This document shows positions 1 to 25,387 of a stretch of 25,387 bases of DNA, in pieces. How positions within the stretch are numbered: the first letter of the stretch is position 1; each line of letters opens with the position of its first letter. The DNA is from Elusimicrobiota bacterium (lineage in GTDB: Bacteria > Elusimicrobiota > UBA8919): positions 1 to 25,387 of the forward strand of contig JBDRIG010000082.1 of NCBI GenBank assembly GCA_043816185.1, given 5' to 3'. Both the position numbers and the translations under genes were made by a program. The notes beneath the pieces are model-generated. The model did not search any database and was not told the DNA's origin. It saw only the letters and a program-made list of their open reading frames with translations.

Positions 1-127
1 ACCGGGGTTAAAGTCCGGTGTATATATTATACACCACTTTTGATCGTTTGAAAAGATCACAAAAGGTCTGCGCTTTTATGCGTTACTTTATGACCTCCCC
101 GGAAGGAAGCTTGCTTTTCCATTATAC
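1..127 (-). mobile_element. Non-coding end of a multi-copy insertion element (IS110/IS1111-like candidate), truncated by the window edge
   Basis: 1-134 is the reverse complement of 25251-25384 with one mismatch (position 5). It abuts the REP motif CATTGCG at 128-134. No transposase is visible, so the family is inferred. Confidence 0.7.
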
Positions 128-141
128 CATTGCGAGCGAAG
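128..141 (+). repeat. Truncated GTCATTGCG-type REP copy (insertion target)
   Basis: CATTGCGAGCGAAG matches the intact copy GTCATTGCGATCGAAGCGAAGCAATCTC at 9927 but lacks the leading GT. Confidence 0.65.
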
Positions 142-2042: not shown

Positions 2043-3353
2043 ATGGCCGAACAAACTATTGAATTTTTACCAATACTTGAACAAATCGAGAGAGAAAAAG
2101 GTATAAAAAAAGCTGATTTATTAAAAACGATTGAAATTGCACTTATGTCTGCATTTAGAAAACATGAGGGCAATAAAAATCTTAATTTGGAAGTACATAT
2201 CGATGAAAGCACTGGAAAAATCAAAGCGTATCAGGTAAAAAAAATTGTCGAAAAAATAGTAGATGCAGCAACTGAAATTTCACTTGAAGATGCGCTCATA
2301 TTAAAGCCAAAAGTAAGTCTTGATATGAATTTGAAATTTGAGATTGTTATAAACGATTTTGGTCGTATTGCAGCACAAACAGCAAAACAAGTTATAATAC
2401 AAAAAATAAGAGAAATTGAAAAAGATAATCTTTTTATCGAGCATACGTCTAAAGTTGGTCAGATATTAAATGGAATGGTTTATAAATTTATTGGCAAAAA
2501 TATAATACTCGATATGGGAAAAAGCGAATCAATATTACCTGTATACGAACAGTGCCCGAGGGAAAAATTTAATATCGGTGATCGATTGAAAGTGTACGTT
2601 CTTAAAGTTGAAAAAACTTCTCGCGGCCCGCAAATGGTAGTTTCCCGTCTTCATCCTGAGTTGATAAAAAACCTTTTTCGCTTGGAAGTTCCAGAAATTT
2701 ACGACAATACTGTTGAGATAAAAAATATTGTAAGAGAACCTTTTTCGAGAATAAAAGTTGCCGTACTATCGCACAATATAAAAGTTGATGCAATTGGTTC
2801 TTGTGTTGGAGTGAAAGGTATAAGAATAAAGTCAATTATCCAAGAATTACAGGGCGCAAGAATTGATATGGTTACTTATTCGGACAATCCCTCTCAATAT
2901 ATTACAAGTGCTTTAAGCCCTGCGAAAGTATTAACAATAGATGTTAAAGAAGCGGAGAAAAAAGCGTATATAACTGTTGCTGCGGATCAATTGTCTTTGG
3001 CAATCGGAAGAGATGGACAAAATGTTCGTCTTGCTGTAAAATTGACTGGCTGGAATATTGACATAAAACCTGAATTGAAAAAAACATCGAAGGAAACAAC
3101 TGAAACACTAACTGAAACACTAACGGAAACACCAACGGAAACGTCAATGGCAGAAACACCACAAGAACAAAAAGCAGATGATCTTATAGAACTTAAAGGT
3201 ATCGGAGAAAAAACGAAAGAGATATTGATTAAGGCGGGATTTAAAACAATAAATTCGCTTGCAACCGCTACTGTGGAACAATTAACTGCCTTGCCTAAAA
3301 TAGGTGAAAAAACGGCACAAAAAATTATAGATTCTGCGAAAAATACGAAATAG
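2043..3353 (+). CDS. nusA: Transcription termination/antitermination factor NusA with C-terminal helix-hairpin-helix extension
   Basis: FGRIAAQTAKQVIIQKIRE, S1/KH motifs and QLSLAIGRDGQNVRLA; C-terminal LKGIGEKT and LPKIGEKTA HhH motifs. Confidence 0.98.
   Translation: MAEQTIEFLPILEQIEREKGIKKADLLKTIEIALMSAFRKHEGNKNLNLEVHIDESTGKIKAYQVKKIVEKIVDAATEISLEDALILKPKVSLDMNLKFEIVINDFGRIAAQTAKQVIIQKIREIEKDNLFIEHTSKVGQILNGMVYKFIGKNIILDMGKSESILPVYEQCPREKFNIGDRLKVYVLKVEKTSRGPQMVVSRLHPELIKNLFRLEVPEIYDNTVEIKNIVREPFSRIKVAVLSHNIKVDAIGSCVGVKGIRIKSIIQELQGARIDMVTYSDNPSQYITSALSPAKVLTIDVKEAEKKAYITVAADQLSLAIGRDGQNVRLAVKLTGWNIDIKPELKKTSKETTETLTETLTETPTETSMAETPQEQKADDLIELKGIGEKTKEILIKAGFKTINSLATATVEQLTALPKIGEKTAQKIIDSAKNTK
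3099..3146 (+). repeat. 12-bp tandem repeat x4 in the nusA linker (TETL-TETL-TETP-TETS)
   Basis: ACTGAAACACTA x2, ACGGAAACACCA, ACGGAAACGTCA. Confidence 0.85.
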
Positions 3354-3514
3354 ATATAGAAGTAGGAAACACTCCCATTTAACAATTTGTTTCTCGACGA
3401 GGCAACAAGGTGTCGTTGCAACAAGCCGTCATCCATGGAAAAGCATGTCAAGTAGAAAATAGCATCCACTGTCAAAAATCAGTATCTTTTGACACGCTTC
3501 CTTCCAGCTAAAGT

Positions 3515-3651
3515 GGCTGTCCGACAACCTATTCCGCTTTACCGACGACACAGCATCAGTAAAAAAATGATGTGTTGTTTGTTGCTATTGGTTGCCAAAT
3601 ACTGCTATATTTTACAAAAAAAATGACTGTTTTACGATTTGTCGGACAGCC
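3515..3651. mobile_element. MITE-like miniature element with 13-bp terminal inverted repeats
   Basis: GGCTGTCCGACAA (3515-3527) and TTGTCGGACAGCC (3639-3651) are perfect inverted repeats; non-coding; ends resemble IS1182/IS5-type termini. Confidence 0.65.
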
Positions 3652-9926: not shown

Positions 9927-10009
9927 GTCATTGCGATCGAAGCGAAGCAATCTCGCTTTTGTTTTCAACATCGAGATTGCCACGAGTCCTTCAGACTCTC
10001 GCAATGGCA
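9927..10009. repeat. Intact inverted REP doublet (REPIN-like)
   Basis: GTCATTGCGATCGAAGCGAAGCAATCTCG ... CGAGATTGCCACGAGTCCTTCAGACTCTCGCAATGGC between dnaK and dnaJ. Confidence 0.85.
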
Positions 10010-16378: not shown

Positions 16379-16440
16379 GTCATTGCAAGGGCTGAACCCC
16401 GATTAAATGGGACAAGTTTTATCTGGATGAAGCAATCCCG
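16379..16440 (+). repeat. Expanded GTCATTGC-type REP copy at the distal island border
   Basis: GTCATTGCAAGG...GAAGCAATCCC; preceded by a GTGTCCG...CGGACAC hairpin. Confidence 0.65.
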
Positions 16441-24106: not shown

Positions 24107-25183
24107 TCATTTCACCCGTTCCATTTGTTTCCAAAAACCACTTTTTGAACGTAGGATATCTCGATATGTCGCATAAAGCGCAAGCGTTATTAAAAGTGCA
24201 AAACCGGCGGATGTCGCAAATTGTATAATCTTTTTATTCAGAGGTTTTCTGAAAATACCTTCAAATAGATAAAACATAATATGCCCACCATCAACAAAAG
24301 GAATAGGCAAAAGATTGAACATTCCGAGTGCAACTGAAACAATTGCTATAAAATTAAGAAACACTTTAGGTCCAAGTTTCGCAGCAAAATAAGCTGATTG
24401 CATAATTCCAACTGGACCAGAAACCTCAGATGGTGCTTCCAAAAGTATCAATTTCATATAAAGATATTTAAGAGGAACAATCGTCCAGAAAACTATTTGA
24501 TCTAACGATTCTTTCAGTGCTTTTACAAACCCCACTTTTATAATAATCGGTTTTGAAGACATATCATATGCGATTCCAATGCGAGATGTTTTCAATTTCT
24601 CGTCGTAACAAGGTGTAATTTTCATATCAAGAATTTCGTCATTTCTTTTTACTGAAAAAAGTAATTCTTTATTTGGTGATATTTTTACAATTTTTGATAC
24701 AAGTCGTGCATCCTCAAGTTTATTTCCATCGATAGCAATTATTTCGTCACCATTTTGAAGTCCCGCAATAAAAGCAGGCATGTCTTTCTCTACTAATTTT
24801 ATAACGGGACGCTGATATTGTAATCCCCAAACAAAAATAATAAACAAAAAAATAATAAACGCAGAAATATAATTCATTGTTGCACCAGCAAAAACAATAG
24901 CAATCCGTTGGTACCATTTTTTTGAAAAAAATTCGTCAGGAGCACCATTTACATCACATATTTCTTCGCCAGCCATTTTTACAAATCCGCCTATGGGTAT
25001 TGGCCTGATTGAATATCTCGTTTCGCCTTTTGTCCATCCAAAAATTTCCGGTCCGAAGCCAAACGAAAAATTCAAAACCTTCACTTTTAATTTTTTCGCA
25101 ACAATAAAATGTCCGAATTCGTGAACCATTATCACAAAACCAAACATTAACGCAACCGCCAATATGCCCAAAAGAATTGTCAT
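24107..25183 (-). CDS. rseP: RIP metalloprotease RseP (M50, PDZ)
   Basis: HEFGH, PIGGFVKMAGE, PDZ domain and FNLLPIPFVDGG; AGGAG RBS before ATG 25183. Confidence 0.95.
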   Translation of the reverse strand: MTILLGILAVALMFGFVIMVHEFGHFIVAKKLKVKVLNFSFGFGPEIFGWTKGETRYSIRPIPIGGFVKMAGEEICDVNGAPDEFFSKKWYQRIAIVFAGATMNYISAFIIFLFIIFVWGLQYQRPVIKLVEKDMPAFIAGLQNGDEIIAIDGNKLEDARLVSKIVKISPNKELLFSVKRNDEILDMKITPCYDEKLKTSRIGIAYDMSSKPIIIKVGFVKALKESLDQIVFWTIVPLKYLYMKLILLEAPSEVSGPVGIMQSAYFAAKLGPKVFLNFIAIVSVALGMFNLLPIPFVDGGHIMFYLFEGIFRKPLNKKIIQFATSAGFALLITLALYATYRDILRSKSGFWKQMERVK

Positions 25184-25230
25184 TTTATCTCCTGTTAGCG
25201 ACAATGAAACTGATAACTAACTGATACGGA

Positions 25231-25257
25231 CGAGATTGCTTCGCTACGCCCGCAATG
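25231..25257 (-). repeat. REP copy interrupted by the element (insertion target)
   Basis: CGAGATTGCTTCGCTACGCCCGCAATG; the expected terminal AC is replaced by the element end. Confidence 0.8.
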
Positions 25258-25387
25258 GTATAATGGAAAAGCAAGCTTCCTTCCGGGGAGGTCATAAAGT
25301 AACGCATAAAAGCGCAGACCTTTTGTGATCTTTTCAAACGATCAAAAGTGGTGTATAATATATACACCGGACTTTAACCTCGGTAAG
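25258..25387 (+). mobile_element. Second copy of the same non-coding element end, truncated by the window edge
   Basis: Inverted near-identical copy of 1-127; the junction reads TG-G-TATAAT. Confidence 0.7.

Follow-up and report, generated by a model that had tools for sequence, protein, structure and literature searches.

REP-targeting elements of the IS110 family are described in Pseudomonas (PMC12288879), reportedly also by Tobes and Pareja in 2006. Among the seekRNA elements of the IS1111 group, the transposase has a published length of 330–350 aa and a C-terminal motif GL-P----S(t)G, the sub-terminal inverted repeats are 11–13 bp long, and extensions of 7 bp and 3 bp lie outside them at the left and right ends, respectively (Siddiquee et al. 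2024, PMC11187229). In the seekRNA, the segment complementary to the top strand comes first, the reverse of the order in the IS110 group (PMC11187229), and the bridge RNA of IS1111 elements has been placed in the right end (Durrant et al. 2024, PMC11208160). Junction promoters have been reported for ISEc11 (PMC11187229) and for the family generally (PMC12288879).

The window, i.e. the whole stretch of DNA analysed here (25,387 nt), is an entire contig (G000:C82) of the studied genome, G000, which comprises 112 contigs and 1.44 Mb. Its termini (1–141 and 25244–25384) form a 141-nt inverted repeat that is 98% complementary. The initial annotation had described 1–134 as the reverse complement of 25251–25384 with one mismatch, and both ends as joined to CGCAATG. 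Both statements were reproduced: the mismatch is at position 7, the remaining differences lie in the flank beyond position 134, and the copy at the right terminus (copy B) has 3 more element bases than that at the left (copy A). CGCAATG comprises 130–134 plus the TG at 128–129 on the minus strand for copy A, and 25251–25257 on the plus strand for copy B. The termini are very probably the left ends of two copies of a ~1.47-kb RNA-guided IS1111-type insertion sequence, located at a 9-base motif that is supplied mainly by REP repeats. The features of the window are as follows:

1–129, minus strand: left end of IS copy A, pointing out of the contig; 94% identity to the left end of the complete copy L018, upstream of a 333-aa ORF
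1–111, minus strand: 5' leader of copy A, running toward a ribosome-binding site and start codon just past the contig end
112–122, minus strand: 11-bp sub-terminal inverted repeat of copy A
121–126, minus strand: TATAAT −10 box at the tip of copy A, with TGG before it; as integrated, no −35 box
123–129, minus strand: TG core plus GTATA of copy A, together the 7-bp extension
130–134, minus strand: left target half CGCAA of copy A, in a flank without a canonical REP partner arm
3430–3505, minus strand: solo fragment (~76 nt) that is similar to the right end of the IS, with tip CCATGGATG and AC after it
9927–9935, minus strand: vacant exact target CGCAATGAC within a palindromic REP
16379–16387, minus strand: vacant near-target TGCAATGAC, one mismatch to CGCAATGAC
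25231–25255, plus strand: REP unit (GAGATTGC arm ... CGCAA) holding the left target half of copy B
25256–25387, plus strand: left end of IS copy B, its leader running to the contig end
25256–25262, plus strand: TG core and 7-bp extension of copy B
25259–25264, plus strand: −10 box of copy B
25263–25273, plus strand: sub-terminal inverted repeat of copy B

A REP had been claimed for both flanks. It is present on the right, with its GAGATTGC arm, but the left flank has a 9-mer half-site and no partner arm. Similarly, of the two uninterrupted copies of the target that had been listed, the one at 9927 is exact but the one at 16379 carries the single mismatch. Another contig end, on C14, goes 18 nt deeper into the element and there reads AAGGAGG, four bases and ATG on the outward-reading strand, indicating that the window ends consist of the left end and 5' leader, and that the gene lies past the contig ends. 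Several close homologues of the protein start MVKYIGMD, in agreement with the ATG GTA A.. on C14. The window gene at 24968–25185 (minus strand), which we take to encode a membrane protein with an HEFGH motif resembling an RseP-type site-2 protease, begins ~70 nt from the right-hand insertion. The ~76-nt right-end-like fragment at 3430–3505 is fused to a palindromic repeat (3506–3650, ~145 nt, arms GGCTGTCCGACAA..), and the same fusion is also found on C7 and, twice, on C36.

We took a census of element junctions throughout G000. The left end occurs on 26 contig ends, always pointing inward and with 98–100% mutual identity; two additional copies are internal and truncated, with the innermost bases missing. 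The flank at the junction reads CGCAATG in 25 cases and CACAATG in one, such that all 26 left junctions read C(G/A)CAATG next to 26 different flanks, consistent with the independent, site-specific insertions proposed initially. A second family, found on 33 contig ends, consists of right ends with the tip ..CCAT(A/G)GAT(G/A) / ..TTGACATGCTTTTCCATAGATG. With internal fragments and two copies that pair a left-end body with a right-end tip included, there are 48 right-end tips. The flank after the tip starts with A in every case, continues with C (42 tips) or T (6 tips), and has G as its third base at 24 tips. Hence, the far end resumes with the AC of the REP, as had been anticipated, and TG, which had been put forward as a possible core, is present at both junctions. 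Left flanks that finish in CGCAATG and right flanks that open with AC together make up an uninterrupted CGCAATGAC, which is vacant 50 times in the genome, compared to ~5 occurrences expected by arithmetic from base composition.

The claim that the element targets REPs held in part. Using a loose pattern, we found a REP partner arm (GAGATTGC-like) no more than 75 nt away in 16 of the 26 left flanks; however, the target is a short motif that also occurs outside canonical REPs. In three non-REP left flanks (C29, C99 and C49) the motif lies beside ..GACTGTGT/..CACAGT of another repeat family, and the remaining non-REP flanks, the window's left end among them, represent other contexts. The other arm of the REP, GCAATCTC, has no TG, which would explain why insertion into the REP is one-sided and in one orientation. 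G001, which belongs to the same genus, has an uninterrupted orthologous REP (..CTCGCAATGAC.. / ..CTCGCAATGACATC..). Together, the junction census, this empty site and the excision of a homologous element (L020, see below) indicate that insertion is site-specific and causes no duplication beyond the shared core. A search for the far-side contig of the right-hand insertion, based on synteny with G001, returned only a 147-nt match to C79, and the two sides of one insertion were therefore not paired. The ~141-nt overlap of contigs with the repeat is probably a product of the k-mer assembly graph. Repeated contig ends of at least eight other families (5 to 12 ends per family) were seen in G000 and point to several other multi-copy elements; one such family is a MITE of ~115 nt with ACTGTGTCGCAAT ends, in which the IS target motif is found as well.

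An exact-pattern scan of metagenome contigs yielded seven loci, including the complete copy, L018. This element is 1,472 bp long, counting the TG once, and has a REP flank (..GCTCGCAATG). It consists of a 134-nt 5' leader, the 333-aa ORF, a 336-nt 3' non-coding region and a right end of the second family; thus, the left-end and right-end families are joined within one element. Domain matches were read on this metagenome copy rather than on G000. The L018 ORF matches PF01548 (DEDD_Tnp_IS110) over residues 5–144 (E 3.9e-13, 49.9 bits, cut-off 29) and PF02371 (Transposase_20) over residues 208–290 (E 4.3e-9, 37.1 bits, cut-off 21.3), and matches no other Pfam family at E ≤0.01. It also aligns over the whole of the NCBIfam model NF033542 (IS110 family RNA-guided transposase, cut-off 140), with a score of 126.6 bits, as does the L020 ORF, with 144.8 bits. 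Residues D8, E54, E55, E57, D90, D93 and S252 are invariant in a 24-row alignment, as are G244 and L245 of a C-terminal motif, GL-R----S(S/A/G), that has the spacing of the published IS1111 motif and differs from it in sequence. A PDB search with the single L018 protein returned only a weak match to 9mty_A. The alignment profile reached the transposases of IS621 and ISCro4; for IS621 (8wt6_A, E 1.2e-8; residue numbering from PMC11208158), KTDkLDA aligned on KTDTVDA and the Ser region on ..ESGS...

L018 and a contig end of G007 have the same flank; G007, which is of the same family as G000 but of another genus, has the same left end on four contig ends. The complete copy is thus a close relative, and not G000's own. 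The same junction is therefore found in a second genus, as well as in two metagenomes. Searches of the assembled G000 with PF01548 and PF02371 gave no match, and a protein search found no transposase copy in G000, G001 or G007. We read the lack of a match in G000 as the interior of the repeat being unassembled, and not as absence; the gene is thus presumed to be present. Left ends in G000 contigs extend for at most 152 nt, and the 3' region is represented by a long stretch in one rearranged copy (C89) and by shorter parts in C44, C48 and C70. The ORF with DEDD_Tnp_IS110 and Transposase_20 domains that the initial annotation expected was accordingly found in the near-identical L018, but not in assembled G000. 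This ORF and the sub-terminal inverted repeats bear out the IS110/IS1111-like reading.

The layout of the element fits the published features of IS1111 elements (PMC11187229, PMC11208160). The sub-terminal inverted repeats are 11 bp and perfect, the left extension is TGGTATA (7 bp) and the right extension is AGA (3 bp), reproducing the asymmetry of the family; as had been noted for IS1111 left ends, the repeat begins with ATGG 7 bp in. The longer non-coding region is downstream of the gene (336 nt, versus 134 nt upstream), and the length of the ORF falls within the published range. These sequence comparisons support assignment to the IS110 family, IS1111 type, as a real, high-copy element that is a new member of a kind already known. 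Consistent with the earlier idea of a promoter at the circle junction, the junction predicted from joining the right end to the left end via one TG has TTGACA and TATAAT separated by 17 nt in G000 and L018, with TGG before the −10 box; the predicted junction of L020 reads TTGACA-17-TAAAAT, with the same spacing. In the integrated copies of the window, REP sequence occupies the would-be −35 position upstream of the −10 box. A promoter scan of linear L018 was uninformative (7 sites versus 4.9 expected), and a candidate −10 box just past the L018 stop codon was below the threshold of that scan.

Three short guide-like segments occupy the same alignment columns of the 3' non-coding region in L018, C89 and L020, the three RNA sequences compared, which together provide one alternative target. 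They read as follows:

First segment: GTCATTG in L018; GACGTCATTG in G000 (C89); TAATCATTG in L020
Second segment: CGCAATG-GT (..CGCAATGGT..) in L018; as L018 in C89; AATAAGATG-GT (..AATAAGATGGT..) in L020
Third segment: ATAGATG-AC (..ATAGATGAC..) in L018; as L018 in C89; ATAGATG-AT (..ATAGATGAT..) in L020

The targets matched are CGCAA-TG-AC for L018 and AATAAGA-TG-ATTA for L020. Read as its reverse complement, the first segment gives the part of the target that spans the core (CAA-TG-AC, or A-TG-ATTA for L020). The second repeats the left target half and core, followed by the first two bases of the element, and the third is the right tip of the element and core, followed by the first two bases of the right target half. 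Between L018 and L020, the first two segments change along with the target, as do the two bases that follow the third segment. For the third base of the flank, the first segment of G000 predicts G, which is also the most frequent base there (24 of 48 tips). We compared these matches to mononucleotide shuffles of each non-coding region, counting the shuffles that reached the observed match length. The second-segment match was reached by 14 of 5,000 shuffles for L018 and 6 of 5,000 for L020, and the third-segment match by 31 and 21 of 5,000, respectively. The first-segment (top-strand) match is weak alone, being reached by 335 of 5,000 shuffles for L018 and 1,379 of 5,000 for L020. All three matches together were reached by none of 5,000 shuffles, for L018 and L020 alike.

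In the consensus fold, one predicted internal loop has the first segment on its 5' side and the second on its 3' side; a conserved stem and a small hairpin border this loop, and one pair of the hairpin is kept through a two-sided change. Folded as single sequences, the RNA regions did no better than their shuffles (z −0.28 and −1.60). The top-strand match precedes the bottom-strand match in L018, as in IS1111 seekRNAs. A candidate right-donor guide, UUAUAUC, could pair with GGTATAA (7 pairs, including one G-U) and is unchanged in L020, although the L020 left end differs. The two-base extensions appear to match the non-cognate rather than the cognate partner, suggesting a likeness to the handshake guides of IS621 (PMC11208158). 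The initial annotation had pointed to the non-coding ends of the element as the place to look for a guide. Segments matching CGCAATG and the junctions do exist, but they are in the 3' region and not in the 134-nt ends. Guide-like matches in the 109-nt leader of the window were not above chance, being reached by 1,401 to 2,890 of 3,000 shuffles, and we therefore rejected a 5' location for the guide RNA. Hairpins in the leader are conserved; of 36 predicted pairs, 2 are maintained despite substitutions in both partner bases. Rfam searches of L018 and of a second IS110-family element, L012, gave no meaningful match, with two weak ones far below gathering scores.

The retargeted homologue, L020, is contig G204:C140 of an Endomicrobiales MAG. 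Its protein is 74% identical to that of L018, and its target is different, with ..AATAAGATG as the left flank and ATTAATGG.. as the right flank. When the L020 element is removed together with one TG, an open frame of 285 codons is restored on the opposite strand, which may encode the transposase of another insertion sequence; the interrupted ORF occupies 392–1093 and 2316–3329 on the minus strand. This target, too, may be a multi-copy sequence. A protein search of 301 genomes of the phylum found two with a match at E ≤1e-20, and a complete copy only in G204; a profile search of 104 genomes from the order of G204 found G204 only. The scan of genome contigs gave two loci and that of viral contigs gave none. 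With so few genomes and loci, no larger comparative set of RNAs was available. A protein search returned 488 transposase relatives at E ≤1e-5. Among the 120 of these matches that were listed, most are 327–349 aa long and are found on contigs of 1.1–3 kb, with source names that include Saccharimonadaceae, Brocadia, Elusimicrobia, Nanoarchaeota and Chlamydiota. The clade is widespread in uncultured lineages, and its occurrence mostly on collapsed contigs of 1–2 kb suggests that it is routinely lost from binned genomes. Other IS110-family elements were seen in related genomes, namely L012 (G001:C28:1–2219) and L011 (G004:C6). The L012 protein is 468 aa long with both Pfam domains, and the L012 contig begins with CTGGTATAAT, giving a similar tip with a −10 box.

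We propose that the element consists of a gene for a 333-aa DEDD/serine recombinase and a downstream bridge (seek) RNA. One loop of this RNA would pair with both strands of the target, CGCAA-TG-AC, and a second region would match the element's own right-end junction. In the predicted circular form, the right end would be joined to the left end through one TG, and the recombinase would exchange the TG of the circle with that of the target. Recombination of this kind would place the element between CGCAA and TGAC, with only the shared TG duplicated. The consensus promoter (TTGACA, 17 nt, TATAAT) would exist on the circle only, and would read through the 134-nt leader into the gene. Supply of the motif mainly by REP repeats would lead to about 26–33 copies in a 1.44-Mb genome, with the assembly broken at each. 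We infer that G000 contains full-length copies, that their RNA is made and bound, that circles form, and that strand exchange proceeds in the order given here.

We also identified derivatives of the element in G000. The C89 copy (27727–28226; locus L025) is ~510 nt long and has both ends and the RNA region, without the gene; it retains 106 nt of left-end sequence and the complete 3' region, in which 36 nt are duplicated within the target loop, together with 17 nt derived from a different repeat. Copies on C14 (1–160) and C2 (23292–23383; locus L030) combine the left-end body with a right-end-type tip (..CCATAGATG-AC). That on C2 is a miniature of ~150 nt, bounded by ~27-nt inverted repeats (GACTGTGTCGCAACTCCACTTTTGGTC) that have 12 nt in common with the IS leader. 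The copies on C44 (1–134) and C48 (9387–9522) are gene-less and start exactly after an internal ..CAATG, with REP-like flanks upstream; the point at which they start is the copy of the left junction that lies internally and codes for the putative guide. The DNA for the bottom-strand guide would be a copy of the element's own left junction (CGCAATG-GT), and the gene would be lost if this internal look-alike recombined with the true left junction. The expected product, a module of ~270 nt, would retain the right end plus one half of the RNA region, and a target would still flank it. Two such modules, on C44 and C48, are present in G000 with different flanks. It is conceivable, if rather doubtful at present, that the element generates its own miniatures through this guide-encoded self-mimicry, and that such a route is general in IS1111-type elements. 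Modules with only the RNA or only an end may, like ISPpu9's ssr9 segments, be mobilized in trans. If true, this would give IS1111-type elements a built-in route to shed the gene and seed MITE-like families.

These derivatives raise the possibility that all the ends in G000 are non-autonomous remnants (deletion derivatives and MITE-like pieces), with no functional copy of the recombinase. The lack of IS110-family domains in the G000 assembly, the presence of C89, of the ~150-nt C2 miniature and of C44 and C48, which start inside the 3' region, and the existence of solo right-end fragments would all be expected of remnants. However, the 26 contig-end copies pass the deletion point of C89 (106 nt) and continue through a conserved hairpin to the contig ends, extending to position 129 or beyond where the contig reaches so far; C14 has a ribosome-binding site and an ATG; and mutual identity of 98–100% fits recent activity. 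Moreover, a k-mer graph would probably stop contigs ~141 nt into the repeat whatever follows, and a collapsed interior contig of ~1.2 kb would be smaller than the shortest contig kept (2,105 nt). We therefore consider it unlikely that G000 harbours remnants only.

The exact start of C44 and C48 after the internal ..CAATG, next to REP-like flanks, could also mean that the internal CGCAATGGT is not a guide, but the fossil of a junction at which gene and RNA modules, once separate, were joined. ISPpu9 is modular in this way, with tnp and ssr9 segments that move separately (PMC12288879). This explanation is very improbable: the internal target stretch is just 9–11 nt long, and the opposite-strand match covers the intact target, including the core and right side, which is impossible in a junction fossil. 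In addition, both segments flank one predicted internal loop and change together to the L020 target, and their order is that published for IS1111 seekRNAs (PMC11187229). An IS3-type REP-targeting element such as IS1397, named initially as an alternative, or an artefactual repeat, has the association with REPs and nothing else in its favour, and we give it almost no credence. The IS3-type element is excluded by the L018 ORF, whose only Pfam matches at E ≤0.01 are DEDD_Tnp_IS110 and Transposase_20, and the earlier concern that the duplication might be an assembly artefact is answered by the presence of the left end on 26 contig ends, far beyond chance, with 26 different flanks, and by the same junction in a second genus and two metagenomes. 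We retain the RNA-guided IS1111-type insertion sequence as the most probable explanation of the window termini.

This one element accounts for 61 of the 224 contig ends of G000: 26 are left ends, 33 are right ends and the other 2 are breaks within the right-end region. It illustrates how far an RNA-guided element whose target is a dispersed repeat can spread through a small genome. L018 and L020 form a natural pair of recombinases, 74% identical, with two targets: the REP motif and a site in a transposase-like gene. Such pairs help to define the programmable positions of the RNA in a less studied branch of bridge recombinases, that of IS1111.

The Pseudomonas elements ISPpu9, ISPpu10 and ISPa11 (PMC12288879) resemble the present element in their site- and orientation-specific insertion into REPs and their multiple copies, and ISPpu9 further resembles it in having small separate modules with only the downstream RNA region (ssr9-only segments). 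By contrast, the REP family and motif described there are different, and ISPpu9 has 7 copies in 6.2 Mb, compared to about 26–33 in 1.44 Mb here. ISPpu9 belongs to the IS110 group and forms no junction promoter, whereas a consensus junction promoter is predicted for the present element.

The likeness to the IS621 bridge RNA (Durrant et al. 2024, PMC11208160; Hiraizumi et al. 2024, PMC11208158) lies in a putative target loop with a separate donor-matching region, a dinucleotide core common to target and donor, two-base extensions that would pair with the non-cognate partner, as in the handshake guides, and alignment of the catalytic Asp, Glu and Ser residues. Unlike in IS621, where the RNA is 5' of the gene, the RNA here is 3' of it; the guides come in the opposite order; TG rather than CT forms the core; the sub-terminal repeats are long; and the extensions are on the bottom-strand guides.

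Also among the closest described systems are the IS1111 seekRNA elements ISEc11, ISKpn4 and ISPa11 (Siddiquee et al. 2024, PMC11187229). The present element differs from these in its distant protein (126.6 bits for L018 and 144.8 bits for its homologue with NF033542, cut-off 140), in the motif GL-R----S(S/A/G) in place of GL-P----S(t)G, and in its hosts, which are uncultured Elusimicrobiota and other candidate lineages. It shares with them a DEDD transposase of 330–350 aa (333 aa here), sub-terminal repeats of 11–13 bp with a 7-bp left and a 3-bp right extension, and a long non-coding region downstream of the gene. As in those elements, the RNA segment complementary to the top strand is 5' of that for the bottom strand, with overlap in the target; a promoter like that of ISEc11 is predicted at the circle junction; and close relatives are naturally retargeted.
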